Below, in pieces: positions 1,975-29,057 of a stretch of DNA of 32,000 nt. Where the stretch lies: NCBI GenBank assembly GCA_964514965.1, contig CAZETV010000001.1, forward strand, positions 120,001-152,000, given 5' to 3'. The notes beneath the pieces were generated by a model. The model was not told the DNA's origin. It was given only the letters and a program-made list of their open reading frames with translations, and searched no databases. A program made the translations under genes and the position numbers. The first letter of the stretch is position 1, and every line of letters starts with the position of its first letter. The stretch comes from Candidatus Hadarchaeota archaeon. GTDB taxonomy: Archaea; Hadarchaeota; Hadarchaeia; Hadarchaeales; Hadarchaeaceae.

Positions 1975-2048
1975 TTTTATCTTTAACTTATGCGACACAG
2001 CAACACTACCAAAAAGTTTAATACTTACTACTTTGGCAACACAAAAAT

Positions 2049-3263
2049 ATGATTAGATTAGGCTTAGAAGTTTTTTTAAAGAGTAACGTAAGTTTAATTG
2101 AAGGTAAAAAAGTTGGTCTATTAACTAATCAAACTGGCATTGACAACGATTTTAACAGTATTATAGACTTATTTTACAATAATCCGAGAATTAAATTGAC
2201 AGCTATTTTTGCTCCAGAGCATGGAATACACAATGAACACCAAGCTGGAATCGGCTTCCAATCTTATGTGGATAAGAGGTATAACATTCCGGTTTTTAGT
2301 CTTTATAGATCATCTGTAAAATATTTGTCACTAACTTCTAGAAATCTAGATGAATGCATGCGTCTTGATGTATACAGTGTAGGTAAATCACCTACACATA
2401 AAATGATGGAGGCTATAGACGTATTAGTTTTTGACATACAGGATGTTGGTACACGAGTTTACACACATATCTGGACTATGGCGTTATGCATGAGAATATG
2501 CGCTAAAAAAGGTGTTTCTTTTATTGTTCTGGATAGACCAAACCCAATAAATGGCGTAACCATGGAGGGGTTTGTTCTCAACTATCCAAAGAATAGTTCA
2601 TTCATTGGATTATATCCTATACCTTTGAGGCATGGCATGACGGTTGGAGAGCTCGCTAGATTTTTTAATGGAGAATTTCTTGACAATAAGGTGGACTCAA
2701 AAGCTATACCCATGGAGGGATGGAAGAGGAAAATGTGGTATAGTAACACTTCCTTGCCATGGATTATGCCTTCACCAAATGTGCCTACCTTAGATAGTGC
2801 TACAGTTTACCCTGGACAAGTACTTTTTGAGGGCACTAACGTCTCTGAAGGCAGAGGGACTACTAAACCATTTGAGATAACTGGGGCACCATGGATAGAT
2901 GGCTTCAAATTGTCGAAAAAAATTAATGCTTACAAGTTTCCTGGAGTAAAATGCAGAGAAGTGTATTTTGTGCCATCATTTTCAAAATACAAGGGTAGGC
3001 TTTGTAACGGTGTACAGATACATGTTACAGATAAAACTAAGTACAAACCTTTTGAATTTGCGTTAAATTTAATCAAAACGATAATGGAGATGTATCCGGA
3101 TCGATTTAGTTTTCATGAAAATTACTTTGATATGGTCGTGGGAAATTCAAAAGTGAGGGAGATGCTGCTAAAAAATATTGGAGTCGATGAGATACTTCAA
3201 AGTTCTCAAGAAGACCTAATCAAGTTTTCAGAACTGAGGAGAGAATATTTACTTTACAGCTAA
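2049..3263 (+). CDS. DUF1343 family protein (YbbC/NamZ-like exo-beta-N-acetylmuramidase family)
   Basis: 404 aa. Family motifs KVGLLTNQTGID, FAPEHG, FDIQDVGTRVYTH, VLDRPNP, MPSPNVP and EGTNVSEGRGT. No signal peptide is visible. Confidence 0.8.
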   Translation: MIRLGLEVFLKSNVSLIEGKKVGLLTNQTGIDNDFNSIIDLFYNNPRIKLTAIFAPEHGIHNEHQAGIGFQSYVDKRYNIPVFSLYRSSVKYLSLTSRNLDECMRLDVYSVGKSPTHKMMEAIDVLVFDIQDVGTRVYTHIWTMALCMRICAKKGVSFIVLDRPNPINGVTMEGFVLNYPKNSSFIGLYPIPLRHGMTVGELARFFNGEFLDNKVDSKAIPMEGWKRKMWYSNTSLPWIMPSPNVPTLDSATVYPGQVLFEGTNVSEGRGTTKPFEITGAPWIDGFKLSKKINAYKFPGVKCREVYFVPSFSKYKGRLCNGVQIHVTDKTKYKPFEFALNLIKTIMEMYPDRFSFHENYFDMVVGNSKVREMLLKNIGVDEILQSSQEDLIKFSELRREYLLYS

Positions 3264-3286
3264 GTCATGGAGATGAGGAAGATAAC

Positions 3287-5329
3287 GTGGGAAGTAGTAT
3301 TCTTAAACTTCTTAAGTTATCTCCTTCAGCTCAGTCTGTAGACTATGTTAGAAGAAAAAAACAATTCCAGTTGCATAGACTTCTTACAGAACAACGCCAT
3401 CCAAAAACTTGGGACATGAGTTTCAAGATAAAATCTGATACTCTAGAAGGTTTAAGAAAAATACTGTCTGTGGACGAGGAAATATCCAACAAGATAATGG
3501 TACTTTCTAAAAAGCCTAAGCTGGTTATTCAAGCAGTAAACGCGGTTGCAAAAGCAATAGTCAAAGGCAAAAAAATTTACATTTATGGGTGTGGTTCTAC
3601 TGGAAGACTCGCAAAACAAATAGAAAGTGCGCTTTGGAAACCCTTTTGGAGACAGTTGAAGAGCAGCATGCTCTGGGAGAAACTAAAAAATTTCCTGCCT
3701 AGTGATATAGAAGAACATCTTATTGGGGAAATGACTGGGGGAGACAGAGCATTGGTAAGTGCTTTAGAAGGACTAGAGGATTTACAATTGATTGGATATC
3801 TTCAACTTATTGATAATAAAATAAAAAAAGGTGACGTTCTCTTTGCGATAACGGAAGGAGGAGAAACCTCGTCCGTTATAGGGTTTATACAAAGGGCATT
3901 GAAATTGTATGGCAAAATAACTTCTCAAAAAAAGAATGAAATTAAAAAGAAGCTTTATTTTATCTACAACAATCCAAATGAAGTTCTCAAATTGATAAAG
4001 CGTAGCAGAATAGTTTTAGAAAATAAAAGCATTACCAAAATTAATCTTACCACAGGATCCCAAGCTATAGCTGGTTCAACTCGAGCGCAGGCCACTACGA
4101 TAGACACCTATGTAATGGGTGTAATAATCGAAGAGGCGATATATAAAGTTCTGCGGGTTTTTTTGACAAAAGATGAACTTTCCCTCGTTGGCTTCAGAAA
4201 TAGAACTCTATCACAGAGATTGAAAGATTTTGTACATATCCCGAAGACAATATTTAATCTAATAAACGACATCGCCCCATTTACTGAATTAGAGGCGAAA
4301 GTTTACAAAAATCATCATTTTTCAATCTACCTTGCTAAAAAAGCTTTGTTTCCAATTTTTATAGATGTAGCTGAAAGGAGCCCGACTTTTAAACTTGATC
4401 CGTTAGATACTGTGAAAGTGCCGAGAAAAAGTTGGGTTCAAGTCTGGACACCAGTAACCGACTACAGGGAAGCATGGAAAGTGTTGCTAGAGCGTCGGTT
4501 TAAAGGCTTAAATCCTCCATTTTATAAAGCTCATGTTTCAAAAAAAGTTAGAGATAAATTCCTTCGACATACAGCACTTAACAGTCTAAACAAAGTAGGA
4601 CAGAACCAGGAGGCTCTTTATGATTTTTCATTTTCTAAATATAACATAGAGAAGCATCCTCCCAGAAAAGGAGATTTAAGTGTGATGATATGTGTTGACG
4701 AAGAAATAGATGAGCTACTAAATCCTTCCTCATCCTTTAGAAGTTTCCTCTCGCTCTGTAAAAAGAATAGGTCTAACGTGGCTCTCCTTTTAATTACAGA
4801 AAAACAACGTGATGAACTCGTGCTTTTAAGATCAAATATTGGAGACTTAGACCAAGATGACCACATCATAGTGCTCACGATGAATAGAAAAGATGATCCT
4901 CTTAATCTCAGGAGACACATCGCTCTTAAAATGGTGCTTAACGCACATTCCACAGCGGTAATGGCTAAACTTAGCAGAGTGTTAGGAAATACGATGGTAA
5001 ATGTTAATCCTAGCAATCTTAAACTCATTGGTCGATCCACATTCTTGATTTTGAGTCATGTAAACGATATAATAAATCGGAACGAATGGAAAAACAAATA
5101 TGGGAAGACAAAACCTGTTAAATATACTGATGCTAATGCGATTCTTTTTAGCGCCATGCGTTTTGTTAGAAAGTTAGAAAAAACTGGTCAAACTCCAGAA
5201 GTACCATTGTGTATAATCAGGGTACTTGAAGCACTACGACAAGAGAAGTGCATCAGCTGGGAGGAGACCTTTTTCATCTTGGAGAACGAGGGTTTTGAGA
5301 ATTATCTTCAACGTGTGTTAAGTTCATAA
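3287..5329 (+). CDS. Two-SIS-domain MurQ (MurNAc-6-P etherase) / glucokinase-regulatory-protein (GKRP)-like protein
   Basis: 680 aa with a GTG start. The N-terminal half matches MurQ/GKRP: LLTEQRHPKT, YGCGSTGRLA, MTGGDRALVSALEGLEDL, ITEGGETSSVIG, AGSTRAQATT. The second half has IDVAERSPTF (compare MurQ LDASECPPTF). The C-terminal cap motif is ALKMVLNAHSTAVMAKLSRVLGNTMVNVNPSNLKLIGRS (compare MurQ KAGTAQKLVLNMLST..GKVYxNLMVDVxxTNxKL). Confidence 0.7.
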   Translation: MGSSILKLLKLSPSAQSVDYVRRKKQFQLHRLLTEQRHPKTWDMSFKIKSDTLEGLRKILSVDEEISNKIMVLSKKPKLVIQAVNAVAKAIVKGKKIYIYGCGSTGRLAKQIESALWKPFWRQLKSSMLWEKLKNFLPSDIEEHLIGEMTGGDRALVSALEGLEDLQLIGYLQLIDNKIKKGDVLFAITEGGETSSVIGFIQRALKLYGKITSQKKNEIKKKLYFIYNNPNEVLKLIKRSRIVLENKSITKINLTTGSQAIAGSTRAQATTIDTYVMGVIIEEAIYKVLRVFLTKDELSLVGFRNRTLSQRLKDFVHIPKTIFNLINDIAPFTELEAKVYKNHHFSIYLAKKALFPIFIDVAERSPTFKLDPLDTVKVPRKSWVQVWTPVTDYREAWKVLLERRFKGLNPPFYKAHVSKKVRDKFLRHTALNSLNKVGQNQEALYDFSFSKYNIEKHPPRKGDLSVMICVDEEIDELLNPSSSFRSFLSLCKKNRSNVALLLITEKQRDELVLLRSNIGDLDQDDHIIVLTMNRKDDPLNLRRHIALKMVLNAHSTAVMAKLSRVLGNTMVNVNPSNLKLIGRSTFLILSHVNDIINRNEWKNKYGKTKPVKYTDANAILFSAMRFVRKLEKTGQTPEVPLCIIRVLEALRQEKCISWEETFFILENEGFENYLQRVLSS

Positions 5330-5536
5330 CAGCGGATTTTATTTCTAATACTGTATTGTTGACAAAATATAATGGGGTGGATGGGCCAAGGGAAAGACCG
5401 CATGAGCTGGGAAGATTTAGACAATAAGTTTGTTGGTTTTGCAGCAAAGACTCTTAATACTCAACTGAATTACTTAGTTTGAGTAATTGAAAAACCTTAA
5501 ATTTCATTAGAAGGTGTTAGCACTTGGTTTAACGAG

Positions 5537-6709
5537 GTGATATTTTTGGGCGGCGGTGCTGAAGCTGAAGTTAAAAATTCTAGAATGTCTGTGGGATGTG
5601 TTCTGAGGCATGGTAATCTAGAGGACGTCGGGATGGATCCCAGCCGCCTTAGGGAAGCAAGTGCATTCATCAAGAAGGCCATTTCCGAAAAAGCTTTTCC
5701 CGGCGCTGTTTTCTTGGTGGCACGTAACGGCGTGATAGTGGCACACGAAGCTTTTGGGGAGGCAGTATCAATACCCGCGGAACTTTCTAAACCTATGAAG
5801 TTAGATACCATTTTCGATACTGGGTCGGTGACTAAACCGGTGGCCACAGCAACATCCTTGATGATTCTACTCGAAAAAGGAAAGGTTTTGCTGGACGACC
5901 CCGTAAACTTCTATATTCCAGAGTACACTGGAGATGGGAAGGAAAAAACAACATTGCGCAATTTGTTAACACACACAGCCGGTATCACCGATCCAATTCA
6001 GCTATTTAAGAGGTGTAAAACTAGGGAAGATTTTCTAAGAGAAATATGCTGGATGAAGCTAGGATGTCCTCCCGGTAGTAGGGTCATTTACAGTTGTTTA
6101 GGTTTTATCTTATTGGCTTTCATCATAGAGAAAGTTGCAGGTGAGAGTCTAGCATCCTTTTCCAGACGAGAAATTTTTTCACCCTTGAGCATGAAGGATA
6201 CCCTCTTCACTCCTCCGGAAAAGTTGAGGGATAGAATCGCGGCGACTGAGAGATGTAGCTGGCGAGGGCGTATTATCATCGGGGAGGTTCACGACGAAAA
6301 CGCTTTTGGCATGGGTGGAGTAAGTGGCAATGCTGGACTTTTCTCCACCGCCCAAGACCTCGCTATCTTCGGCCAAGCATTCCTCAATATGGGAGCGTAT
6401 GGGCACAAAAGAATCCTCAGCTCCGCGACCGTTGAGTTGATGACCAAGAACCACACAGTAGGACTGGAAGAGCCTAGGGGTTTAGGGTGGGCTCTAAAGT
6501 CGGAGAAAGGACCCCAAGCTGGCGAATTGTTGTCCCCATTGACTTTTGGGCATACTGGTTTCCCGGGAGTTTCTCTATGGGTCGACCCAGCGAACAAACT
6601 TATCACGATCCTTATGACGAATAGGGTTCATCCCACTAGGGAGAACGAAGCAATTCTTCGAGTCAGACCACTATTCCATAATATCATTGCTTCCTCGATC
6701 ACTGGCTAG
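5537..6709 (+). CDS. Serine hydrolase, beta-lactamase/PBP (class C-like) family; possible AmiE-like muropeptide amidase
   Basis: SxxK motif in FDTGSVTKPVA, a YSx motif (IYSCLGF) and HTG in FGHTGFPG. The start is ambiguous: GTG 5537 in the ORF track, or in-frame TTG 5546 lying 5 nt after a GAGGTGA Shine-Dalgarno site (5534-5540). Confidence 0.8.
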   Translation: MIFLGGGAEAEVKNSRMSVGCVLRHGNLEDVGMDPSRLREASAFIKKAISEKAFPGAVFLVARNGVIVAHEAFGEAVSIPAELSKPMKLDTIFDTGSVTKPVATATSLMILLEKGKVLLDDPVNFYIPEYTGDGKEKTTLRNLLTHTAGITDPIQLFKRCKTREDFLREICWMKLGCPPGSRVIYSCLGFILLAFIIEKVAGESLASFSRREIFSPLSMKDTLFTPPEKLRDRIAATERCSWRGRIIIGEVHDENAFGMGGVSGNAGLFSTAQDLAIFGQAFLNMGAYGHKRILSSATVELMTKNHTVGLEEPRGLGWALKSEKGPQAGELLSPLTFGHTGFPGVSLWVDPANKLITILMTNRVHPTRENEAILRVRPLFHNIIASSITG

Positions 6710-6801
6710 GAGTTAGGTCATTACAGGATTTTCTCACTGAAAAACATGCCATTCATCTAGCTCAAAAATTGCTGGGTCAATACATATGAATTCTTCTCTA
6801 A

Positions 6802-6831
6802 AAAGAACGCTCAAACTTTCGAAAAGTATCT
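6802..6831. repeat. Right copy of the direct repeat (AAAGAACG-N7-TTTCGAAAAGTATCT)
   Basis: 15-mer at 6817-6831 and 8-mer at 6802-6809. It overlaps the stop codon of the ROK gene. Confidence 0.5.
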
Positions 6832-7861
6832 AACTATGCGTGTATATGAATACCAGTTTTGCTGCCCCATACAACGAGGCATTGGGCCCCAGCGACGAAG
6901 GCGCTATCTTTATTTCCTTATCTTTAATTTTCTTGACTAAGTAAGGCTGTGAATAAAGCTCCACAATTTCGTTTATGCGGTTCATCAGTAAGTCAGCGGA
7001 CTGCCCTACTCCGCCTCCGATGATGACCACTTCCGGGGCTAGGGTGCTGATGAGGTTTGACACAACAATGCCCATATATGTCGCGGTTTCTCGGACAATT
7101 TTTAGGGCGAGCGGGTCACTCTTCCTTGCGGCCTCAAATACCAATTTAGATGTTACGGCGTCAATCTTATTATTCACCATATCCATCAAAATCGTTTTAG
7201 ATCCTTTACGTATTTCTTCAACAGTTCTTCTAGCGATGCCCGTGCCAGAGCAGAGACTTTCAAAACATCCCTCGCCATAAATTTTGTCCATGAAGCTAGG
7301 CCCAAGCAACATCCACCCTATTGAGCCTGCGAGCTTCCCAACTCCATCGTACGGTTTTTCGTCAACGAGTATGCTGCCACCTATGCCCGTCCCCAGAATG
7401 ATGTAAATCGCATTTTTCGCCCCGCGAGCAGCACCTACCCATTGTTCTCCGAGCACCGGTGTAACGTGGTCGTGCACTGCGAATATTGGGAGCGAAGTAC
7501 CGAGATTTTTTTGTAGAAAGTTCTTTAGTGTCGAACCTTGTATTTGCGGGATGTTCGGTGCCCATGCAATTTTATCGTCATATTTTTCCACAAGTGTTGC
7601 ACACGCGATACCGATCCCCTTGATTTTTAACCCACTTGCTTTTGATTGATTCATTACTTTTTTAGTTAATTTTGCTATTTGGGAAAACATCGCGTCTATT
7701 GTACCTTTTTTAGTAGTCGGCTCTTCGACACGGAAAATAATTTTGCCATTTGAACTCATAAGCGCCGAAGCAATTTTTGTGCCGCCGATATCAACTCCTA
7801 TCGCATACGATTCTCTAGCTGGCTTCGTATTCTTGTGGAGTGCCGCTCTTTTTGGCATCAT
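6830..7861 (-). CDS. ROK family sugar kinase (glucokinase / N-acetylhexosamine kinase-like); no N-terminal HTH
   Basis: 343 aa. ATPase phosphate-1 motif AIGVDIGGTKIA, ILGTGIGGS and VVIIGGGV. The ROK Cys motif is degenerate (GEGCFESLCSG). Confidence 0.8.
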   Translation of the reverse strand: MMPKRAALHKNTKPARESYAIGVDIGGTKIASALMSSNGKIIFRVEEPTTKKGTIDAMFSQIAKLTKKVMNQSKASGLKIKGIGIACATLVEKYDDKIAWAPNIPQIQGSTLKNFLQKNLGTSLPIFAVHDHVTPVLGEQWVGAARGAKNAIYIILGTGIGGSILVDEKPYDGVGKLAGSIGWMLLGPSFMDKIYGEGCFESLCSGTGIARRTVEEIRKGSKTILMDMVNNKIDAVTSKLVFEAARKSDPLALKIVRETATYMGIVVSNLISTLAPEVVIIGGGVGQSADLLMNRINEIVELYSQPYLVKKIKDKEIKIAPSSLGPNASLYGAAKLVFIYTHS

Positions 7862-7983
7862 AAGATCCTATTGTAATCAAGGTTGACGTTAATTAAACTT
7901 TTACGGAAACAAAAGCACCTTTCGGGGTCATTCACTGTTTTAAAAAATTATAACAGATTGGGTGGGCCAAGGAGAATAGTTCA

Positions 7984-8991
7984 TTATTTAAACAGCGGAA
8001 TAACTTCTTTCGCAAAAAGCTTGTGAGTTCCTCGCTCGGCGGTTTTGTCAAAGTATAAGATGAAGTGGGTTACTCCGAGTTTCACGAATTTTTTGAGCTG
8101 CTCAGCGCATTGTTCAGGCGTCCCCATAATAATGCCTCGTAGGAATTGTTCCTTAGATATGGGCTCCCAAATCGCTTTCCCTCGATAGTCTTTGTTAAAA
8201 CCATCTTCGATGAGTTCCTGCACGATTTGCTGAACTTCCGTTTCAGTTTTGCCTATTATCACTTCAGCATGAAAGCTCAACTCGATTTCGTTTGGATTCC
8301 TTTTAACACTGGCGCAATGCTCTCTTAATATGCGGACTTTTCTTTCGAAGTCTTCTGGCATTCCTCCCCCAAGATTGTAGATGTCTGCATGTTTTGCCAC
8401 TACACGTAGAGTCAGTTTTTCTCCGCCTCCCCCGATCAAGATTGGGGGCCTCGGCTTTTGAACTGGTTTGGGGTAGTTGATTGCTCCATGAAGCTTGTAA
8501 TACTTACCTTCAAAATCAACTACGGGCTCGGTCCACATCCGTTTGATTATCTCGACCGCCTCATCGAGCATACCTATTCTTTTCGCCGCTTTCGGGAAAT
8601 CGTAGCCGTAGCCAAGGTACTCGTGTTCGTACCACCCGGCGCCTATTCCCAAAATCAGCCTGCCTCCCGAAATGGCATCTAGTACCGACGTCTGTTTTGC
8701 AAGCAATGACGGGTTCCGGTAGGAGTTGCAAGTCACGATTTGGCCAAGCTTCACCTTATCCGTTTTTGTTGCTAAGGCCGCGAGGGTCATCCAGCATTCA
8801 AAAACCGGACGATTTTCAATCTTTGGCACCGTGTGGAAGTGATCGTAAAGCCATATCGAATCATATCCAAATTGTTCAGCATCCTTTGCCGTTTGCACTA
8901 TAGATTGAAATTGGTCTTTGGGAGAAAGATCCTCTGCCAAATCCAACCTCCAGCCTTGGGGGATGGTCAAACCGAATTTTATTTGGTTCAT
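7984..8991 (-). CDS. Luciferase-like monooxygenase (LLM) class, probably F420-dependent oxidoreductase
   Basis: 335 aa. LLM pattern FGYDSIWLYDHF, LGIGAGW and PPILIGGGGEK. A GGAGTGA Shine-Dalgarno site lies 5 nt before the ATG. Confidence 0.8.
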   Translation of the reverse strand: MNQIKFGLTIPQGWRLDLAEDLSPKDQFQSIVQTAKDAEQFGYDSIWLYDHFHTVPKIENRPVFECWMTLAALATKTDKVKLGQIVTCNSYRNPSLLAKQTSVLDAISGGRLILGIGAGWYEHEYLGYGYDFPKAAKRIGMLDEAVEIIKRMWTEPVVDFEGKYYKLHGAINYPKPVQKPRPPILIGGGGEKLTLRVVAKHADIYNLGGGMPEDFERKVRILREHCASVKRNPNEIELSFHAEVIIGKTETEVQQIVQELIEDGFNKDYRGKAIWEPISKEQFLRGIIMGTPEQCAEQLKKFVKLGVTHFILYFDKTAERGTHKLFAKEVIPLFK

Positions 8992-9157
8992 TAGTTCACT
9001 CCTTTAAGTTTTCGAAATCGTCAAATATAAGTTTGCCGATTTTTTCTCCAATAAAAATTTTTAATATTCAACTGAAATATCGAGCATTTGAAAAACTTAT
9101 AAGTATTATTAAACGACTTTTAACATTTGGGTAACAAGTTTGAGGAGGCGATAACAG

Positions 9158-9991
9158 TTGAATAGCAGTTGCGGCGTTAAAGCCGGAAGCCTCGGCGATG
9201 AGATCAAGCTCATCATCAGAGGCGACGATATGGGATTTTGTCATAGTGCCAATTTAGCTTTTGAAAAAACTTGTAAGGAGGGAATTTTGACTTCGGCTGA
9301 GATAATGGTTCCGCCTCCTTGGTTCAATGAATCAGTCGAGATGGCAAGAAAAAACCCGAAGCTTGACATCGGAGTGCACTTGGTTCTGACCAGCGAATGG
9401 CAGCTCTACTCCTGGGGGCCAGTATTACCAGCATCTGAGGTGCCCAGTTTGGTTGATAAAGATGGTCATTTCTTCTCGTCTAAGCGTTCCTTCTTGGCGG
9501 CTAGACCGAAACCGGCTGAAGTCGAAAAAGAACTCAGAGCTCAGATTGAACTGGCGCTGAAAAAAGGCTTGAATGTTTCGCATTTATCTAGCCATATGTT
9601 CGCGACAAAATTTACTCCTAAACTGAAAATGATTACGAAGAAACTTTCCGCAGAGTATAAATTACCCATCTCTGGTGATATGGGAGAAAAACGTGGCGAA
9701 TGGTTCCCCATCTATGATGTCCCGCCTAAAAAGAAAGAAAATGTCTTAACAAGTATTCTTAAGAAACTCACCCCTGGCCTCTGGATGATTGGCACTCATC
9801 CAGGATTGAATACTCCCGAAATGAAGGCGATGAAAACGGTGGACCCCCGTGGGCTTAAACAAGTTGCTGCTCATCGGGCAGCAGTCACCAAGGCTTTGAC
9901 CAGCAGAAGGGCTAAACAGATAATAAAAAACAGGAAAATAAAATTGGTAAGTTATCGTGACATACATTTCTGTGATTCAAAAAAAGTCTAA
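9158..9991 (+). CDS. YdjC/ChbG family carbohydrate (chitooligosaccharide-type) deacetylase
   Basis: 277 aa. N-terminal LIIRGDDMGFCHSAN (family DDxG motif), DIGVHLVLTSEW and HLSSHM. TTG start preceded by GAGGAGG. Confidence 0.75.
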   Translation: MNSSCGVKAGSLGDEIKLIIRGDDMGFCHSANLAFEKTCKEGILTSAEIMVPPPWFNESVEMARKNPKLDIGVHLVLTSEWQLYSWGPVLPASEVPSLVDKDGHFFSSKRSFLAARPKPAEVEKELRAQIELALKKGLNVSHLSSHMFATKFTPKLKMITKKLSAEYKLPISGDMGEKRGEWFPIYDVPPKKKENVLTSILKKLTPGLWMIGTHPGLNTPEMKAMKTVDPRGLKQVAAHRAAVTKALTSRRAKQIIKNRKIKLVSYRDIHFCDSKKV

Positions 9992-10030
9992 AATGGTGAC
10001 ACTATACAATTTAAATTTCCAGGATTTTTT

Positions 10031-11293
10031 TTGTGGGGGACAAGTACCTCTGCCCATCAGGTAGAGGGAAACAACAGGAACAATCAGTGGTGGAAGTGGG
10101 AAAAAGAAGTTGGTTTAGAGGAATCAGGAATAGCTTGTGATCACTACAACAAATATAGAGAGGATATCGATTTAATGGCGGAGCTGGGCTACAACGCATA
10201 TCGTTTTTCCATCGAATGGAGCCGCGTAGAGCCCAAAAAAAGACAATTTGATGAAAAGGAAATCGAGCACTACAGAGACGTGATAAATTACATGAAAGAA
10301 AAAGGCATCAAACCGATACCCGTACTACACCACTACACGAACCCCTTATGGTTCATGAACGAAGGAGGATGGATCAAAGAAAAGAACGTTGAGTATTTCA
10401 TCGAGTTCGTGAGGAAAATTGTGGATGAGTTTGAGTTTGACTACTGGCTGACAATAGACGAGCCTATGGTGTATGCTTTTAGCTCATGTTTGGATGACAA
10501 GACTCCCCCAGCTTACTTGGTAAACAATAATTGGCCTCAACGAGAAAAAAGTTTTAAAATGGTTTTTAAGGTGGCTTCAAATCTCCTGCAGGCTCACGCC
10601 AAGTCCTACGAGACAATTCACGAGCATTCTAGGGGCAAGGTAAGTCTAGCAAAGGCGGTGAATATCCTTGAGCCAGCTTCGGGTTCTTCGTTGGACAGGT
10701 GGTCAACAGGCATGTGGGATTACATGGAAAATGGTGTGTTGTTGCAATCCCTGAAGGAAGGCAGACCGTTACCTCCGCTTTCAGGGGAAGAGTTCGGCGA
10801 GGTTCTCGATTTCTTCGGTCTTAATTATTTTTTGGGGCGGGTGTGCTACTTCGAGGAAAGTTCTCCAACTCCGCCTTGGTACTTTTTCCAGACCAAGGCA
10901 AAGGGAGGGGGTGAGGTTAACTCAATGGGGTGGTGGGTATACCCGGAGGGAATTTACAAGGCAATAAAAAGAGTTCATGAGATGTTTGGCCTACCGATAA
11001 TGGTTACTTCGAATGGGATAGGGACAGAGGATGACCTACAGAGGAGGAGATTCTTGGGCAGCCACTTGAAGCAGATTAGGAAAGGCATAGACAACGGGGC
11101 GGACGTAATAGGTTATCTACATTGGAGTTTCATGGACAACTTCGAATGGGCCGAGGGATTTGAACCCAAGTTCGGCCTGGTGGAGGTGGATTACAGTAAT
11201 CTTAAAAGAATACCTAGAAAGAGCGCATACATGTACGGTGAAATTGTCAAAAAGAATGGGATAGGCCCAGAGTTAGAGAAGAAATATCTATAA
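10031..11293 (+). CDS. Glycoside hydrolase family 1-like protein with altered catalytic motifs (TIDEP, VTSNG); start uncertain
   Basis: GH1 motifs: LWGTSTSAHQVEG, ACDHYNKYREDI, YRFSIEWSR, GGW, GLNYF, GWWVYPEG and HWSFMDNFEWAEGFEPKFGLVEVDY. The acid/base motif reads TIDEP rather than T(L/F)NEP. The nucleophile motif reads VTSNG rather than (I/V)TENG. Confidence 0.85.
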   Translation: MWGTSTSAHQVEGNNRNNQWWKWEKEVGLEESGIACDHYNKYREDIDLMAELGYNAYRFSIEWSRVEPKKRQFDEKEIEHYRDVINYMKEKGIKPIPVLHHYTNPLWFMNEGGWIKEKNVEYFIEFVRKIVDEFEFDYWLTIDEPMVYAFSSCLDDKTPPAYLVNNNWPQREKSFKMVFKVASNLLQAHAKSYETIHEHSRGKVSLAKAVNILEPASGSSLDRWSTGMWDYMENGVLLQSLKEGRPLPPLSGEEFGEVLDFFGLNYFLGRVCYFEESSPTPPWYFFQTKAKGGGEVNSMGWWVYPEGIYKAIKRVHEMFGLPIMVTSNGIGTEDDLQRRRFLGSHLKQIRKGIDNGADVIGYLHWSFMDNFEWAEGFEPKFGLVEVDYSNLKRIPRKSAYMYGEIVKKNGIGPELEKKYL

Positions 11294-11384: not shown

Positions 11385-12245
11385 CTAAACAGTCGCTAAG
11401 CATACTCCGGTGAATATGATGACCATCCCCAAAATCGCTCTTCTGGAGGGTCGCTCCCCAACGAGGAGAATGCTGAGCAGGAAGCCGAAAGGTATCACGG
11501 CGCCGGCGACAGGTGCCAGCGCGCTTGCTTTTTCCATCCCCAGCGCGCTCAGGAATAAGAGGGGACCGATGAGAAAACCGATGGTGCCAGAGAGTAAGCT
11601 CAGCTCCAACCCCTTTTTGTCGAATTTTATGCCGGTCCTAATGTGGCGGACAGCCATTGCGATATTGCAGGCCACCGCTGCGGAGATTACCCTAATCGCA
11701 AGAAGCGTGTTTGCGGTCATCCCTTCATTAAGGCAAAATTTGTTGGGGGCAATTGCCGAACCCCACATGATTGCCACCAGCAAAGCTAGAGGAACCATCC
11801 TCTTCCAGCCATCGCCTGCTTTTTCCCCTTTCGGTGCCAGAAAGTATGCTCCAAGAACCACCAATGCAACCGATACAAAAATGAATGGTGTGATTTCCTC
11901 TCCCAAAAGCAAAACTGAAAAAAGAACGCCCCATACTGAATGGGTGTTGCCGATGGGTAAAACCCTGTGGGCGGCGTCCCTGTTCAATAAATAAAAGTAC
12001 AGCTCACATGCTACGAACCAAGAAACTACTCCAACGATGCTTGCTATCACGGTTAAAAAAAGTCCCGGGTAGCTCAAACTATCGGTCGACAAAGCGAATA
12101 GAACGATCAACGGTGCAACGAAAGTTGGTCTGATGGCGTTGAAGACCGATACGTCCAACTTCCTCAAAGCCAACTTGCCAGTCGTTTGGTCTGCCCCCCA
12201 GCAAAGGGCCGCAACTAGTGCAAGCGCGAATGCGAGAGAATTCAT
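11385..12245 (-). CDS. DMT superfamily (EamA-like) transporter
   Basis: 286 aa with about 10 predicted hydrophobic helices in two similar halves, typical of EamA domains. Confidence 0.75.
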   Translation of the reverse strand: MNSLAFALALVAALCWGADQTTGKLALRKLDVSVFNAIRPTFVAPLIVLFALSTDSLSYPGLFLTVIASIVGVVSWFVACELYFYLLNRDAAHRVLPIGNTHSVWGVLFSVLLLGEEITPFIFVSVALVVLGAYFLAPKGEKAGDGWKRMVPLALLVAIMWGSAIAPNKFCLNEGMTANTLLAIRVISAAVACNIAMAVRHIRTGIKFDKKGLELSLLSGTIGFLIGPLLFLSALGMEKASALAPVAGAVIPFGFLLSILLVGERPSRRAILGMVIIFTGVCLATV

Positions 12246-12302
12246 AGTTTAGAATAAGAGATATATAACATAAAGTTTGTGTGGGGAAAGAGGTCAGTTA
12301 AA

Positions 12303-13526
12303 ATGACAAAATCAAGATTAAATGTTCCGGACGAAAGCCGAAACAATAAATCCATTAAATTGTTTCGGTTTTTTCAGACGGCTGGATGGGGTTCCTTTTC
12401 AATCTTCTTTCCGATTTATCTCGTGGAGTGTGGTATTTCTCTTGTACAAGTTGGAGTAATAATGGCAATCCCTGTGGTGATCGGGATCTTTACGAGTATC
12501 ATGTGGAGTTCCTTTTCCGACGCTATCGGAAGAAGAAAACCTTTTCTGATACAGTCGACTGTTCTAATGACATTGTTTACATTTGCGGTCACGCTGGTAT
12601 CATCGTTTGAGGGGTTTATCATTCTGGGCGTGTTTAGGGCTTTGTTTACGCCCATGGCTGAAGGATTGATAGTGGCGAGTTTGTTTAGAACGTCCAATTA
12701 TCGCAGTAGAGCCACGGCTTACTCGGGTTTTGCAATATGGGGATCCATCGGATGGGCCACCGCCACCGCGCTAGCAGGTGTTGCAGTCTGGGTTTTTGGG
12801 ACAACGGCGGCTTTTTATTTCGCGGGTATACTGTTCACCGTCGCGATTATTTTTTCTCTTCAAGTCCCAGAGCCTAGGGAAATTGATGAGGGCTCCAAAA
12901 CATCAGCACGTAGTTCGGTTCGACCAAGCATTATCGCGGGCTATCTCGCCCCAATACGTGGACTTTTGACGAATAAGAAAATGGTGATTCTCCTCTTTAC
13001 TTCTCTCCCCCTATTTGCGGCGATGAATGCGTCCGAGCGATTCTTTCCTATTTATTTGGAGTCCTCTGGGGCCTCATCCATGCTTATAGGCCTTACTTTC
13101 ACATTTCCTGCTCTATTGGAGATTCCAGTTTTTCTCCGAGTGGGAGGGCTATCCGATAAAATTGGCGTGAGAAAACCTTTGCTCATTTTCTCTGCAGCAG
13201 TGTACGGCCTGCTCTTCTTCCTTGTCGTGTTGACTTCAGATCCCGTTCTACTCTTAGTGGTATATTCATTACTCACACCATTAGCGTGGGCCCCTTTGAT
13301 TACAGGTTCGTCTACTTTGGTTTCGGAAATCGTGCCGCGAGATAAATGGGTTACGGGGCAGACTTTATTAACGATCTGGATGTGGTCCGTGGGCGGTATA
13401 GTTGGCCCTCTCATCGGTGGATTCACTTCGGAAGCATGGGGGTTGCCGGCTATGTTTGCCGTTGCTTCGCTATTTGCGGTAGCATCGGGGATATTCTTTA
13501 GAGGGGTCAGAGAAAAAAGGCTCTAA
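12303..13526 (+). CDS. MFS transporter
   Basis: About 12 hydrophobic helices and the MFS loop motif SDAIGRRKPFL. I prefer ATG 12303 (GAGGT 8 nt upstream) over the ORF-track GTG 12279. Confidence 0.8.
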   Translation: MTKSRLNVPDESRNNKSIKLFRFFQTAGWGSFSIFFPIYLVECGISLVQVGVIMAIPVVIGIFTSIMWSSFSDAIGRRKPFLIQSTVLMTLFTFAVTLVSSFEGFIILGVFRALFTPMAEGLIVASLFRTSNYRSRATAYSGFAIWGSIGWATATALAGVAVWVFGTTAAFYFAGILFTVAIIFSLQVPEPREIDEGSKTSARSSVRPSIIAGYLAPIRGLLTNKKMVILLFTSLPLFAAMNASERFFPIYLESSGASSMLIGLTFTFPALLEIPVFLRVGGLSDKIGVRKPLLIFSAAVYGLLFFLVVLTSDPVLLLVVYSLLTPLAWAPLITGSSTLVSEIVPRDKWVTGQTLLTIWMWSVGGIVGPLIGGFTSEAWGLPAMFAVASLFAVASGIFFRGVREKRL

Positions 13527-15545: not shown

Positions 15546-16472
15546 CTATTCTGGATTCATCGGTGAAAATTTCGCAATCAGGCGTAACACATCGTTTAAG
15601 GTCGGAAGGGAGGGTATGCCCCCCAATCCGTTGGTGGTCAGCGCGCCGACCGCGTTCGAGAATGATGCCGTCCTCTCTATCCTCCACCCCTTCAAGGTTC
15701 CGTATATTACACCGCCCATGAAGCCGTCCCCAGCTCCGATCGTGTCGCGCACCTCGACTTTGTACGGGTCGGAATATCCCTTCGAATTTTCGTCTGCGTA
15801 ATAGCACCCGCGATTCCCCAAGGAGATGAACACTTTGTCCACGGATTCAAGCAACCTCTCAGCCGCATCCTCGATGTCCAGCCTTAGTATAAATTTGACC
15901 TCCTCCTCGTTCAACTTTACCACATCCGCCATCTCAAGGCCCACACCAATCCACTTGCGAGCTTTCTTCATGTTTTTCCATAGGCTCAGCCTGAGGTTAG
16001 GGTCGTACGTGACTGTGAGACCGTTCTTCTCCGCTATCTTCACAGCCTTCAGGGTAGCACTCCTCGCTGGTTCAGTTACTAGGGAGATGCTACCGAAGTG
16101 GAAGACTTGGGCGCCAGCTATATAGTCATCATCTATTTCATCCGGCTTCAGCTGTGCATCTGCGCCCCTGTGGAACTGGAAATGGTGCTCCCCATCATCG
16201 TCAATCGAAACGAATGCCCGCGTCGTGTTTGCCCCTCTCTCAAGGCGGACGTTGCTCGTGTCCACCCCCTCCTTTTTTAAGATATTTCTCAGGGGCCTGC
16301 CGAACTCATCGTCCCCGACCTTGCCGATGAACCCGGACCTCAATCCCAAGCGTGAGCAAGCGACCGCGACGTTCGCTGGGGCCCCTCCAGCCGCCTTCTC
16401 AAAGGAAATTCCCCTATTCGTTGGAACGAAATCTATCAGAAGTTCCCCAAGGGAGATAATGTCGATGTTCAT
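15546..16472 (-). CDS. PfkB family carbohydrate kinase (fructokinase/ribokinase-like)
   Basis: 308 aa. N-terminal SLGELLIDF...GGAPANVAVA and C-terminal DTIGAGDGFMGG (PfkB signature 2). Confidence 0.8.
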   Translation of the reverse strand: MNIDIISLGELLIDFVPTNRGISFEKAAGGAPANVAVACSRLGLRSGFIGKVGDDEFGRPLRNILKKEGVDTSNVRLERGANTTRAFVSIDDDGEHHFQFHRGADAQLKPDEIDDDYIAGAQVFHFGSISLVTEPARSATLKAVKIAEKNGLTVTYDPNLRLSLWKNMKKARKWIGVGLEMADVVKLNEEEVKFILRLDIEDAAERLLESVDKVFISLGNRGCYYADENSKGYSDPYKVEVRDTIGAGDGFMGGVIYGTLKGWRIERTASFSNAVGALTTNGLGGIPSLPTLNDVLRLIAKFSPMNPE

Positions 16473-16545
16473 TCAGATCAATACCGTGCTAGTTTCACCT
16501 GTTATTCCTTAACTATACGCTCGTGCTGAGGACTTTCTCTAAAAA

Positions 16546-17517
16546 TTACCGGATATGCTGGAGTACTTCAGTGTTGACAACGTTTTTCGGGAGTTGCCCT
16601 TTCAAGACTTTAAGAATATTTTCACAAGTTACTATGGCAACTCTTCTGAGGCCATCAGTCGTCCAAGCAGCAGAGTGGGGGGTCAATAGGACGTTATCAA
16701 GATTGAATAAGGGATGCTTGGACACTGGTTCATTCTCCAAGACATCTATCCCAGCACCTGCGATCCAGCCCTCTTTCAGCGCCCTGTAAAGCGCGTCATC
16801 CTTTACTATTCCCCCTCGTGCGGCGTTCACTAAGACTGCACTACTCTTCATCAGCCGGAGTTCCTTTTCGCATATCATTCCTCGGGTTTCATCCGTAAGA
16901 GGGCAATTTATGCTGATGTAGTCTGATTCCTTTAACAAAGTCTTGAGGTCAACCACTTGGGCGCTGACCCCTTTCGCCTTTTCATTCGAAACATACGGGT
17001 CATAGGCGAGTACATTCATGTTAAAAGCTTCGGCCATCTTCGCTACAAGATATCCGATGTTGCCGAGCCCAATGATTCCGAGGGTTTTATTCCAGAGTTC
17101 ATCACCTATAAGCTGGTGTCTTTCTCTCCATCTACCGCTCCTAACTAACCTGTCTCGTGACATAAACTTCTTTGAAATAGCTATTATCATCCCAATGACA
17201 TGTTCTGGTACGGACGACCCCTCAACCTGCGGTATGTTAAAAACTAAGACTCCCTTTTTAGTACAAGCGTCCAAATCCACGCTGTCCACTCCGACTCCGT
17301 ATCTACCAATGACTTTCAGTCTCTGTACTCCTTCTAGCGATTTTTTGGATATCTTCGAATCCCCCGCTATGATCGCATCAACATCGCGGATGTCTTTGGC
17401 TAAAACCTCCCCAGAAAATTTTTTGATGTATCTTATCTCGGCGATATCCTCGAGCAACTTTAACCCAAATTCGACTTCGGGAAGCGGCTCCGTAATTAAA
17501 ATTTTATATTTCTTCAT
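16546..17517 (-). CDS. D-isomer-specific 2-hydroxyacid dehydrogenase (glyoxylate/hydroxypyruvate reductase or PGDH-like)
   Basis: NAD-binding GIIGLGNIGYLVA, catalytic region VNAARGGIV and LTPHSA. I trimmed the start to ATG 17517, which overlaps the eda stop as ATGA. Confidence 0.85.
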   Translation of the reverse strand: MKKYKILITEPLPEVEFGLKLLEDIAEIRYIKKFSGEVLAKDIRDVDAIIAGDSKISKKSLEGVQRLKVIGRYGVGVDSVDLDACTKKGVLVFNIPQVEGSSVPEHVIGMIIAISKKFMSRDRLVRSGRWRERHQLIGDELWNKTLGIIGLGNIGYLVAKMAEAFNMNVLAYDPYVSNEKAKGVSAQVVDLKTLLKESDYISINCPLTDETRGMICEKELRLMKSSAVLVNAARGGIVKDDALYRALKEGWIAGAGIDVLENEPVSKHPLFNLDNVLLTPHSAAWTTDGLRRVAIVTCENILKVLKGQLPKNVVNTEVLQHIR

Positions 17518-18191
17518 TTTAAGGCATGCCTCGCTTCTTTTATCCATTTGATGCATTGTTTAACTTTCTCCTTTATACCTTCGAAATCTCCTGCTTTCAC
17601 TAAGTCTTTATCGATAAGCTTGCCGCCGATATTCAAGGCTGCCGCACCTGCTTTAATCCAGGAGAAAATATCTTCGTGAGTAGTTTCTACCCCGCCTGCA
17701 GGCATTAGTTTAGACCAAGGACAAGGTACGAGCACGGCTTTTATGAAATAAGGCGTCACCACTTTTGCTGGGAACACCTTTACGATGTCTGCGCCCATCT
17801 CCTCAGCTTTAGAAATTTCAGATGGGCTGTTGCAACCTGGAACATAAGTCACTTTGCGACGATTACAAATCTTTGCTACTTCTGGGTTGAAGAGAGGGCC
17901 AACTATGAAGTTCGCCCCACTATCGATGTAGAGAACTGCGGTGGTGGGGTCTATTATCGTTCCAACACCCAAGATGAGGTCTGGAAGTTCTTTGTTGGAC
18001 CATTTCGCTAACTCGGTAAAGACTTGGTATGCGAAGTCCCCCCTGTTGGTAAATTCGACGACCGTGGCTCCGCCGTCGTAGCAGGCTCGGACGATTTTCT
18101 TCGCTATCTCAACATCTGCATGATAGAAAATTGGAAGTAATCCGATATCGAGAAGTTTGGCTGTAACTTCGTGTTTTAGGAATTTCGGCAC
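17514..18191 (-). CDS. eda: 2-dehydro-3-deoxyphosphogluconate / 4-hydroxy-2-oxoglutarate aldolase
   Basis: 225 aa. The Eda family pattern is EFTNRG, GVGTI, GANFIVGP, PGCNSPSE and VKVFPA (Schiff-base Lys context), then MPAGGV. Confidence 0.85.
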   Translation of the reverse strand: MPKFLKHEVTAKLLDIGLLPIFYHADVEIAKKIVRACYDGGATVVEFTNRGDFAYQVFTELAKWSNKELPDLILGVGTIIDPTTAVLYIDSGANFIVGPLFNPEVAKICNRRKVTYVPGCNSPSEISKAEEMGADIVKVFPAKVVTPYFIKAVLVPCPWSKLMPAGGVETTHEDIFSWIKAGAAALNIGGKLIDKDLVKAGDFEGIKEKVKQCIKWIKEARHALK

Positions 18192-18195
18192 GTTA

Positions 18196-19281
18196 TCATC
18201 TCACTATCCTACCTGAAACGACTCCCCGCATCAACCTCTCTATTTCATCCATCCTGATTACCGCGAAATCGCCGGGTATCGTGTGCTTTAGACAAGAGGC
18301 CGCGACCGCAAAGTCTAGAGCTCTCTGATAATCTCCCTCGTGGGTTAATAGGCTGTGGATCATGCCTCCAGAGAAACAGTCGCCGGCCCCGATTCTGTCG
18401 ACGATGTGGGTGATATCATATGTGGCAGTTTTGTATAGTTTTTTTCCATCGTATAAAACACCTGTCCAAGTGTTATGGCTCGCGCTTATGCTCCCCCTTA
18501 GGGTGATTGCTTCTAATCTGAGGTTTGGGAATCTCTCCATTAACTTCTCCGCAACGAAACGATAACTCTCAGCTTCCACTTTACCCTTTGTTACATCCGT
18601 CCCTGGAGCTTTAATTCCAAACACCTTCTCCACATCCTCTTCATTACAGATACTGATGTCGACGTATTTCATCAGTTCTGACATAACGTCTCCCGGGGTT
18701 CTTCCCCATTTCCAGAGCTTGGAGCGGTAATTCAAATCGCAGGACACAGTTACCCCCATTTCCTTTGCTTTCTTGACTGCTTCGAAACAAGTTTCCGCCG
18801 CTCCTCGGCTCACGGCAGGGGTTATTCCAGTCCAGTGGAACCAGCGAGCATCAGAAAAAACTTTATCCCAATCTATCATTCCGGGTTCTATCGTTGCAAA
18901 GGCTGAATTACCCCTGTCGTAAATCACCTTGTTGGGCCTGTGTACAGCTCCGATTTCGGCAAAATAAATTCCTATGCGATCTCCACCTCGAATTATCTTA
19001 TCAACACCTACTCCGAACTGGCGGAGGTGGCTGATACAGGCGTCTCCCAAATCGTTATCGGGGAGACGTGTTACGAAATCCACTGGGAGCCCCAAGTTCG
19101 CTATAGCTACGGCAACATTACCTCCAGCTCCAGCATACATCGCATCGAACGATCTTGACTGCAAAAACCTCATGAAACCTGGTGTCGATAACCGGAGCAT
19201 CATTTCGCCGAATGTTACTATTTTTTTGTCCAAATAACCACTTTTCATTTCTTTTCCCTTATTTATATCTCTGTTTTTCAT
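18196..19281 (-). CDS. kdgK: 2-dehydro-3-deoxygluconokinase (PfkB family)
   Basis: VTFGEMMLRLSTPG...GAGGNVAVAIANLG and DRIGAGDCFSGG. It lies 4 nt upstream of eda. A TTTTTTAAAA box sits about 20 nt upstream of ATG 19281, so the transcript may be leaderless. Confidence 0.75.
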   Translation of the reverse strand: MKNRDINKGKEMKSGYLDKKIVTFGEMMLRLSTPGFMRFLQSRSFDAMYAGAGGNVAVAIANLGLPVDFVTRLPDNDLGDACISHLRQFGVGVDKIIRGGDRIGIYFAEIGAVHRPNKVIYDRGNSAFATIEPGMIDWDKVFSDARWFHWTGITPAVSRGAAETCFEAVKKAKEMGVTVSCDLNYRSKLWKWGRTPGDVMSELMKYVDISICNEEDVEKVFGIKAPGTDVTKGKVEAESYRFVAEKLMERFPNLRLEAITLRGSISASHNTWTGVLYDGKKLYKTATYDITHIVDRIGAGDCFSGGMIHSLLTHEGDYQRALDFAVAASCLKHTIPGDFAVIRMDEIERLMRGVVSGRIVR

Positions 19282-28046: not shown

Positions 28047-29057
28047 TTATTTTAGTTCTGCTGGACTTAGATATTCTCTAACTTTTTTCGTCGCACTCAC
28101 AATTACTTGAAGTTTACCAATCGTTTCTTCTTGTGTTCGCGTCTTGAATCCGCAGTCGGGGTCGATCCAGAGCTGCTCGGGCTTTAAAACATCAAGGGCA
28201 CGCCGAATGCGATGCTCAACCGTTGCCGTGTTTTCGACTACATGCGAATGCACGTCCACCACCCCAAACGAGAGGTCCTTGGTGAAGGGGTGCTCTCGGA
28301 ACAGATCTACCAAGTCAAACTCGGAGTTCGACATCTCGAGGTCGAAGTTGTCAACTGGGAGCTTCAGCATCTCGGGGTAAATGAACTCGAAAGCTCCGTA
28401 ACAGATGTGGTTGATGAAATATGCATCAACACCTTCCGTCACGATTTTCATCGCCTCGATAGCGAATTCCGAAAGTTCCTCGGGCCTCGCCGAAATTGCA
28501 GGCTCGTCGATTTGGATTATTTTCGCTCCCGCTTTCGCCAGCGCTTTAACCTCTTCGTGCAACGCTTTCGCCAGCGCCAGACAGGCTTCTCGGCGACTCG
28601 GGTAGTATTCGTTGAACGACCAGTCCATCATTGTGTAAGGCCCCGTGACCATTCCCTTGACAGGTTTGCTGGTGAGTTCTTGGGCAAATCGCCACCAGTC
28701 CACTGTAATCGGCCTCTGCCACTTTACCTCGCTCGTGATGATCGGTTTTCGGTAGTAGCGGTTGCCATAGCTCCTAACGAGTCCGCTTATTTTGAAGCCA
28801 TCTAAGTTGTTCGCGAAGTACGTTACCATATCTCCTCGGTAAATCTCCCCGTCAACAAGCAAATCCAACCCCACCTTTTCCTGAATCTCAATCCACTCGC
28901 GCGTGACCCGCTCTTCGAGTTTTTTGAGTTCTTCGGCGGTCAACTTTTGGTCAGCGAATTTTCGTCTGGCATCGATTAGGTAGAGTGGCTTAGGAAGACT
29001 CCCGACAGTTGTGGTTGGCAGGAGGGGCAGCTTCAGGTTAAGATGTTCCAACTGCAT
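28047..29057 (-). CDS. metE: Cobalamin-independent methionine synthase, catalytic (C-terminal barrel-like) protein
   Basis: TTTVGSLPKP, zinc ligand context HICYG and IDPDCGFKTR. I trimmed the start to ATG 29057, which overlaps the upstream stop (TAATG). Confidence 0.85.
   Translation of the reverse strand: MQLEHLNLKLPLLPTTTVGSLPKPLYLIDARRKFADQKLTAEELKKLEERVTREWIEIQEKVGLDLLVDGEIYRGDMVTYFANNLDGFKISGLVRSYGNRYYRKPIITSEVKWQRPITVDWWRFAQELTSKPVKGMVTGPYTMMDWSFNEYYPSRREACLALAKALHEEVKALAKAGAKIIQIDEPAISARPEELSEFAIEAMKIVTEGVDAYFINHICYGAFEFIYPEMLKLPVDNFDLEMSNSEFDLVDLFREHPFTKDLSFGVVDVHSHVVENTATVEHRIRRALDVLKPEQLWIDPDCGFKTRTQEETIGKLQVIVSATKKVREYLSPAELK

Follow-up and report, generated by a model that had tools for sequence, protein, structure and literature searches.

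Introduction

The gene cluster described here lies in a 32,000-nucleotide stretch of the genome of a subsurface archaeon, Candidatus Hadarchaeota (GenBank assembly GCA_964514965.1, contig CAZETV010000001.1, positions 120,001 to 152,000; the whole stretch is called the window, and coordinates are counted within it), and its closest described counterparts are bacterial gene sets for the recovery of N-acetylmuramic acid (MurNAc) from peptidoglycan. The murQ-murR-murP-amiE-nagZ-namZ genes of Bacillus subtilis share with it a clustered NamZ, MurQ homologue and beta-lactamase-fold hydrolase (PMC8054146); MurR, the MurP phosphotransferase system (PTS) and the GH3 enzyme NagZ are absent from the archaeal cluster, NamZ, AmiE and NagZ act as secreted proteins in B. 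subtilis whereas the archaeal enzymes are predicted to be cytoplasmic, and the likeness to AmiE is known only by way of Escherichia coli PBP4B. The murQ-murP-yfeW genes of E. coli, of which yfeW is the third, similarly link PBP4B/YfeW to MurQ; the archaeal set has no PTS, and its PBP4B/YfeW homologue lacks the N-terminal export/anchor sequence of YfeW. In Tannerella forsythia, murTKQ together with NamZ1/NamZ2 leads, as we propose for the archaeon, from a transporter through an ATP-dependent kinase to an etherase, with GH171 enzymes supplying MurNAc and no PTS involved (PMC10465942; bioRxiv 10.1101/2021.12.02.470905). The archaeal cluster differs in having a ROK kinase rather than one of the MurK/BadF type, a 680-aa fused double-SIS protein, a leaderless NamZ and an archaeal host; because such a host has no murein of its own, the pathway would be catabolic only.

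The GH171 family of NamZ is described as predominantly bacterial, few of its enzymes have been characterised, and those that have are all exo-muramidases (PMC8054146; bioRxiv 10.1101/2021.12.02.470905). Glucokinase regulatory protein (GKRP) has been described as a duplicated, fused MurQ; the GKRP-type proteins of Naegleria and lancelet are reported to be active MurNAc 6-phosphate (MurNAc-6P) etherases, such non-vertebrate enzymes reportedly being used for digesting bacterial walls (bioRxiv 10.64898/2026.05.08.723886; PMC7052976).

Here we propose that the window carries a cytoplasmic, PTS-independent catabolic cluster for peptidoglycan amino sugars, and that two of its genes came fairly recently from a low-GC bacterium resembling Acidobacteriota/Aminicenantes; judged on sequence comparisons and gene linkage, this is the reading that we favour, with somewhat better than even confidence. 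Ciliates and other protists have been described as recipients of comparable transfers (PMC13198582, PMC7052976). Full-text literature searches, with most subscription journals outside their scope, turned up no account of salvage of the NamZ/MurQ type in any archaeon, Hadarchaeota included.

Results

A NamZ-SIS680 cassette with bacterial relatives

Open reading frames (ORFs) were taken from a six-frame listing, domains were assigned with Pfam and NCBIfam, and leaders were sought by a hydrophobicity scan. The domain scans bore out the gene families named in the original prediction for this stretch, and the leader scan agreed with its statement that signal peptides are absent: NamZ, SIS680, the beta-lactamase-fold protein, YdjC and GH1 have no hydrophobic N-terminal leader.

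Alignments to relatives delimit a forward-strand cassette of 3.4 kb (1990–5424), from about 60 bp before the NamZ ATG to about 95 bp past the SIS680 stop, which holds the genes for NamZ (GH171 family; 2049–3263, 404 aa; NamZ_N 1e-77, NamZ_C 5e-55) and SIS680 (3287–5329; SIS/GKRP_SIS_N), a 680-aa MurQ homologue of GKRP architecture. Its GC content is 0.365, compared with 0.465 in the remainder of the window, and stays at about 0.36 across 2–5 kb; GC at third codon positions (GC3) is 0.32 for both genes vs. 0.46–0.57 for the downstream cluster genes. Five independent assemblies (L001, L004, L005, L007 and L008), which come from different sources, group the same genes together; nucleotide identity to these relatives is about 95.5% in the cassette and 84–91% in the flanking genes. 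Synonymous divergence (dS, Nei-Gojobori) is 0.06–0.09 for NamZ and 0.12–0.14 for SIS680, as against 0.23–0.66 (about 0.44) in the same genome pairs for the electron transfer flavoprotein (ETF), FAD-oxidase, ROK, LLM, beta-lactamase-fold, YdjC and MFS genes; the cassette thus has a dS 4–7 times below that of its flanks, with a ratio of nonsynonymous to synonymous divergence (dN/dS) of 0.14–0.48. Its neighbours vary as well: on the left stand the FAD-oxidase gene in the window, ROK in L001, L004 and L007, and NagA in L008; the right-hand neighbour in the window is the beta-lactamase-fold gene, and elsewhere it is LLM (directly after SIS680 in L004, L005, L007 and L008). Repeat, tRNA and Rfam scans detected no terminal repeats at the cassette, no tRNA genes, no other integration hallmarks and no riboswitches.

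The best non-archaeal matches of both NamZ and SIS680 are from Acidobacteriota/Aminicenantes and related candidate phyla, at 52–62% identity. In one Acidobacteriota locus (L006), the NamZ and SIS genes are adjacent too, and their composition matches that of the cassette (locus GC 0.33; GC3 0.28 and 0.31). A distance tree places the archaeal SIS680 among bacterial sequences, beside the L006 genome; a midpoint-rooted neighbour-joining tree of NamZ was uninformative. Movement of the NamZ-SIS680 pair from bacteria to archaea, followed by recent spread or recombination among Hadarchaeota, is well supported by these comparisons. The transfer signal is limited to the two genes, and the other cluster genes show none: in the set first described as bacterial in style, NamZ and SIS680 have strong support for a bacterial origin, whereas the remaining genes are native-like in composition and divergence. 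Some 35 bp ahead of the NamZ ATG, in the conserved part of the cassette that precedes the gene (1990–2048), stands AAAAAGTTTAATAC; in our own reading it resembles an archaeal promoter with a B recognition element and TATA box (BRE/TATA), which suggests that the imported genes may be expressed from archaeal signals.

NamZ has a complete two-domain architecture (PF07075, 260 bits; PF20732, 187 bits; both far over the cutoffs) and matches the Bacteroides fragilis protein 4k05 with an E-value of 6e-74. It is 57–62% identical to Acidobacteriota/Aminicenantes proteins that bear about 45 more N-terminal residues. The archaeal protein is leaderless, with an ORF that allows no upstream extension, whereas most bacterial relatives have leaders, many of them ending in a Cys and lipoprotein-like in appearance. 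The motifs PEHG (E57) and SEGRGT (R269) are invariant in 12 homologues; PEHG aligns with 4k05, which has Val at the Arg position, and the two residues are matched to Glu92 (at the end of beta-2) and Arg279 of B. subtilis via Pfam coordinates only. NamZ is therefore predicted, by homology, to be an exo-beta-N-acetylmuramidase.

SIS680 consists of SIS-1, SIS-2 and a C-terminal lid, collinear with GKRP and, in this respect, like the eukaryotic proteins of Naegleria and lancelet; GKRP_SIS_N scores 31.7 bits vs. a cutoff of 27. Its MurQ-matching parts are residues about 28–213 and 541–591, with about 330 residues inserted between them. An AlphaFold (AF2) model built from a 28-sequence family alignment (predicted local distance difference test, pLDDT, 87.7; predicted template modelling score, pTM, 0.91) found full-length GKRP structures as its best Foldseek matches (4bba, 4bb9 and 3w0l; TM 0.65–0.71, E about 1e-15, about 700 columns), and MurQ covers just half of the model. 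Unlike eukaryotic GKRP, the SIS680 family is prokaryotic and scores higher to MurQ (71 bits for the family profile) than to GKRP (31 bits), with an identity to GKRP of about 13–15%; a GGDR motif is common to SIS680 and Xenopus GKRP. The trio of NamZ, MurQ-like and beta-lactamase-fold (PBP4B-like) proteins on which the original prediction was built is real and recurs in the five assemblies, with the correction that its “MurQ” is a fused double-SIS protein of twice the length of MurQ, whose subunit has a single SIS domain and roughly 300 aa.

According to what Hadi et al. are said to have found, Glu83 and Glu114 have catalytic roles in MurQ. In a MAFFT alignment of trimmed sequences of SIS680 and authentic E. 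coli MurQ, Glu114 (EGAED) corresponds to E164 of SIS680 (EGLED), and the phosphate loop GxGxSGR is kept as GCGSTGRL; both are invariant in the 28 family members. Glu83 (DASEC) aligns to W117 in MAFFT or to A115 without gaps, and the invariant E113 sits 2–4 residues upstream of this position. E113 and the other family-specific invariant acids of SIS680 (E148, D153, E190 and E193) could substitute for Glu83.

The long-SIS family to which SIS680 belongs is large (2,917 matches at E ≤ 0.001), and its source labels are often an automatic “etherase”. In the four bacterial contexts examined, the long-SIS gene is beside NamZ in one and beside a sodium:solute symporter (SSF) gene in two. The SSF gene stands immediately after the long SIS in L010 (10163–11704) and L012 (10072–11574); such a symporter could be a dedicated sugar importer of the bacterial long-SIS protein.

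Archaeal host of the cluster

A search of species-representative genomes with SIS680 returned two loci only, both from Hadarchaeota/Hadesarchaea and 95–96% identical, and exact-sequence look-ups placed the NamZ, LLM, GH1 and mevalonate kinase (MVK) of the window on a single contig of 1,030,738 bp; the archaeal identity first assigned to the contig is thereby confirmed. Pfam and NCBIfam identify as archaeal markers on the contig an MptE-like protein, two consecutive MetE-type ORFs, mevalonate kinase and a class-II GlyRS. The mptE, split metE and mvk genes named earlier as markers were thus found again, whereas the “ubiD-like” and “JAB” genes were not recovered. The “split metE” is a pair of reverse-strand ORFs of 374 and 326 aa (28047–30037) with an apparent overlap of 115 nt (29057–29171), which may reflect the choice of start codon.

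The 90% clusters of NamZ and SIS680 contain about 40 variants each, whose named members are Hadesarchaea and one “Elusimicrobiota” metagenome-assembled genome (MAG). The copies deposited under the latter name, “Elusimicrobiota bacterium” (cluster members P0365 and P0377; NamZ and SIS680, more than 90% identical to those of Hadesarchaea), probably come from a mis-binned archaeal contig and, less likely, from a very recent transfer.

Proposed lactate oxidation, and further genes beside the cassette in relatives

Immediately before the cassette, on the forward strand, the window contains the C-terminal part of EtfA (30–557; Pfam ETF_alpha 1e-37), whose gene starts upstream of the window, and an LctD-like, FAD-dependent lactate dehydrogenase of the GlcD type (554–1921; FAD_binding_4 and FAD-oxidase_C). 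The best solved relative of the latter is 7qh2_C, LctD of the Acetobacterium woodii Ldh-EtfAB complex (E 1.2e-94; next match 3.7e-65). EtfB and EtfA precede the LctD-like gene, full-length in L008 (1737–4965), in the manner of A. woodii LctBCD, a likeness known here from sequence; unlike in A. woodii, the genes are linked to a MurNAc cluster, which is new. LctD/Etf genes lie beside the cluster in L001, L004, L007 and L008. This adjacency, to which the original prediction drew no link, fits the disposal of D-lactate, because an etherase would release D-lactate, and we propose the LctD-like dehydrogenase as a sink for the D-lactate that MurNAc-6P would yield.

L008, a Hadesarchaea relative, has three more genes (at 827–1579, 6168–7559 and 7570–8736) around the cassette, which encode NagA, a divergent ROK-like kinase and a PRK02947-type SIS protein. 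NagA is immediately upstream of NamZ (345 bits vs. a cutoff of 226), and the second kinase, a 463-aa protein with an N-terminal extension of about 150 aa, has no other database match. Opp/Dpp-type ABC ATPases (oligo_HPY) flank the cluster in L004 (8118–9598) and L007 (10832–12612) and are absent from the window; muropeptides or oligosaccharides may be what they import. A further L007 gene, without annotation, encodes a protein of 452 aa that matches Amidohydro_2 in part.

Downstream genes of the cluster

Directly after the cassette, the forward-strand gene at 5537–6709 encodes a PBP4B/YfeW-like serine hydrolase of the class C beta-lactamase fold (Beta-lactamase 3e-65), 32% identical to E. coli PBP4B/YfeW over 350 aa (E 1e-52). 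Its motifs SVTK97, YSC185 and HTG339 align with the SxxK, YSx and HTG motifs of YfeW. The AmiE fold named for it earlier was compared by way of the E. coli homologue PBP4B. The protein falls below the PBP4B equivalog cutoff; it is a candidate MurNAc-peptide amidase or peptidase.

On the reverse strand follow a ROK sugar kinase (6830–7861; ROK 1.6e-50; PF00480, 173 bits) and an F420-dependent luciferase-like (LLM) oxidoreductase (7984–8991; TIGR03560, 275.8 bits vs. a cutoff of 231.4). The kinase has the DxGxT ATP motif as DIGGT at residue 24, and a regular-expression search found no CxCGxxGC zinc motif in it; with its gene adjoining NamZ in L001, L004 and L007, it is a candidate MurNAc/GlcNAc 6-kinase. 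LLM had been noted as an unexplained extra in the cluster; it is no stray gene, being a conserved neighbour in all the relatives.

A YdjC-family carbohydrate deacetylase is encoded on the forward strand at 9158–9991 (YdjC 7e-49; PF04794, 167 bits), with the motifs GDDMG, GVHL and SHLSSH, and YdjC also occurs in L008 and L015. At 87 bits it lies below the 227-bit cutoff of the ChbG equivalog and is therefore not ChbG itself. Beyond the GH1-fold gene described below are an EamA/DMT transporter on the reverse strand (11385–12245; EamA 1e-28, 7 hydrophobic segments) and, on the forward strand, an MFS transporter (12279–13526; MFS_1 and MFS_1_like about 1e-42), a candidate importer whose L008 homologue is 75% identical.

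A GH1-fold protein without the nucleophile

The GH1-fold protein (10031–11293, forward strand; Glyco_hydro_1 3e-82) has as its best solved relative the Pyrococcus horikoshii beta-glucosidase 1vff (E 2e-100), with which it shares fold and length. Its acid/base Glu is kept in the motif IDEP, in which Asp replaces the Asn of NEP, whereas in the nucleophile motif VTSNG a Ser aligns to the Glu of ITENG in 1vff. The Ser is present in all homologues of 49–100% identity (P0241–P0259), including those of an MSBL1 archaeon and a Haloarculaceae MAG, and DEP in 14 of the 18 members of this clade; homologues at ≤44% identity (P0260 onward) all keep TENG and NEP. A pseudogene was considered and rejected, the Ser being conserved down to 49% identity and the ORFs intact: by these alignments, the Ser-variant proteins are a conserved nucleophile-less archaeal subfamily and not a product of decay.

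Because Ser replaces the nucleophile Glu, the protein is no classical retaining glycosidase, and the earlier comparison of ChbG plus a glycosidase with E. coli chbF-chbG is weakened accordingly. An adjacent Asp-Glu pair without an enzyme nucleophile is the arrangement of GH20-type substrate-assisted hexosaminidases (mechanism: PMC10570127; that paper concerns GH185 and was set aside as a precedent for a substrate-assisted GH1). Given this resemblance, we put forward, by analogy and as a hypothesis only, that the GH1-fold protein is a substrate-assisted beta-N-acetylhexosaminidase that would cover the missing NagZ function. The Ser-variant clade may instead comprise phosphorylase-like enzymes or non-catalytic binders.

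YdjC and GH1 share a reading frame, with one TAA and 13 codons between them (9989–10033). The GH1 N-terminus FPGFFLWG is encoded in frame upstream of the first standard start (TTG at 10031), and the ATG with which the GH1 genes of relatives begin (P0246, “...GDIMQVKFPDGFLWG”) is an ATA at 10004 in the window, a possible start. Gene context is only weakly informative: YdjC neighbours GH1 in the window and in L015, GH42 beta-galactosidase-family and SIS_2 genes precede it, in place of YdjC, in the metagenomic relative L016 (962–3928), and the MSBL1 and Haloarculaceae contexts contain no related adjacent gene and give no functional clue.

Further along the window, on the reverse strand, lies a sugar-acid module (15546–19281) of a PfkB kinase, a D-2-hydroxyacid dehydrogenase, a KDPG/KHG aldolase and a KDG-kinase-like protein, the last of which matches the kinase half of the “KHG/KDPG aldolase/sugar kinase fusion” model with 494 bits. 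The module points to a route of the semi-phosphorylative Entner-Doudoroff type, encoded near the amino-sugar cluster.

Discussion

The joint presence of NamZ and of homologues of MurQ and PBP4B is a signature specific to peptidoglycan, and homology and linkage allow us to propose how their products might work in concert: the MFS or DMT transporter, or an Opp/Dpp-type ABC system in the relatives, would import MurNAc-GlcNAc or small muropeptides; the PBP4B-like serine hydrolase would trim the stem peptide; leaderless NamZ would free MurNAc at the non-reducing end; the ROK kinase, joined in L008 by the second ROK-like kinase, would make the 6-phosphates; SIS680 would take the D-lactyl ether off MurNAc-6P to give GlcNAc-6P and D-lactate; LctD-EtfAB would convert the D-lactate to pyruvate; and NagA (in L008) and/or YdjC would deacetylate the amino sugar before it enters central metabolism.

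Several observations weigh against this scheme. SIS680 falls below the cutoffs of all MurQ models (best 90.9 bits vs. 168), and it has no acidic residue at the Glu83 position; for these two reasons, its role as an etherase is plausible rather than established. In L010–L012, the long-SIS gene stands beside an SSF transporter or GH2 and not beside NamZ. For a NamZ without a leader, the substrate must be imported and must carry MurNAc at its non-reducing end, and neither a specific importer nor a lytic enzyme acting outside the cell was identified; the window yielded neither NagA nor a GlcN-6P deaminase. The NamZ dN/dS of 0.35–0.48 suggests relaxed constraint, the serine hydrolase reaches 192 bits with its best model, PBP4B, vs. 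an equivalog cutoff of 385 and has esterase-type proteins as its nearest solved structures, and sequence assigns no particular sugar to the ROK kinase.

The main alternative, which rests on the missing Glu83 and the varied bacterial contexts, is a different substrate. The cluster might degrade another amino-sugar glycan (chitooligosaccharides, an exopolysaccharide, or fragments of an archaeal envelope or N-glycan), the specificities of NamZ and SIS680 having drifted, e.g. to another 3-O-substituted or acidic hexosamine phosphate. YdjC, the GH1-fold protein, NagA and ROK are generic genes of the GlcNAc/chitobiose type, SIS680 combines the loss of a Glu83 equivalent with the extra invariant acids, its bacterial homologues adjoin GH2 or SSF genes rather than peptidoglycan genes, and GH171 is sparsely characterised; on the other side stand the uniform exo-muramidase activity of those GH171 enzymes that are characterised, the three-gene signature named above, and an adjoining lactate dehydrogenase that suits a lactyl-ether substrate. 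We give this reading a real but minor share of the probability. A non-catalytic SIS680 is a good deal less likely: it would be a sugar-phosphate-sensing regulator like vertebrate GKRP, perhaps modulating ROK/ASKHA kinases, which would agree with full-length GKRP as its best structural match, with the shared GGDR motif and missing Glu83 equivalent, and with the ROK kinases that adjoin SIS680 in the archaeal clusters. However, very many polar residues are invariant at 52–59% identity, as is typical of an active site, the general-base Glu is kept, kinases are not found beside the bacterial long-SIS homologues, and the binding of glucokinase by GKRP is reported to be an innovation of jawed vertebrates and earlier GKRPs to be etherases (bioRxiv 10.64898/2026.05.08.723886).

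Alternatives that concern the host rather than the enzymes are remote. The Hadarchaeota might have an envelope polymer of their own, murein-like or otherwise containing MurNAc, which these genes serve to build or turn over, and the enzymes are indeed all predicted to be cytoplasmic, as in bacterial recycling; we consider this very improbable, since the cassette is a recent import, domain scans of the window found no Mur-ligase or MurA/MurB-type genes, and pseudomurein, which occurs solely in Methanobacteria and Methanopyri, contains no MurNAc (PMC11111885). More improbable still is an artefact in which bacterial DNA became attached to archaeal sequence through chimeric assembly or mis-binning. 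The foreign composition of the cassette and the one copy labelled Elusimicrobiota would be in keeping with such an artefact, but in each of the five independent assemblies the same cassette is bordered by the same archaeal-type neighbours, and NamZ and MVK share one 1.03-Mb contig. A bacterial or chimeric contig, or missing synteny, was named beforehand as what would undo the idea, and neither was found. Nor is the cassette contaminating bacterial DNA, because its identity to any homologue from bacteria is only about 60%.

Within peptidoglycan salvage as the favoured explanation, a more specific proposal may be made, which we advance tentatively and do not expect to hold in every part: Hadarchaeota would feed on wall debris through an acquired module in which the etherase has GKRP architecture and an acid catalyst unlike that of MurQ, NamZ is cytoplasmic, and a nucleophile-less GH1 with an Asp-Glu dyad replaces NagZ by substrate assistance on beta-GlcNAc linkages; the etherase may even represent the bacterial fused ancestor of eukaryotic GKRP.

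In conclusion, the cluster would represent a known type of pathway in an unexpected host domain. Two side findings, the prokaryotic family of GKRP type and the GH1 clade that lacks the nucleophile, have a value of their own. Automated annotation labels both of these under-studied groups simply as “etherase” and “beta-glucosidase”, and a very large prokaryotic family of GKRP architecture bears on the origin of GKRP. In sediments, much carbon and nitrogen is held as peptidoglycan, a pool that is poorly tracked and whose consumers are not usually taken to include archaea. A dated transfer of the two committed steps of MurNAc use from bacteria to archaea, traceable by its composition, would provide a genetic marker for necromass feeding by archaea, which could be tracked in metagenomes and metatranscriptomes.

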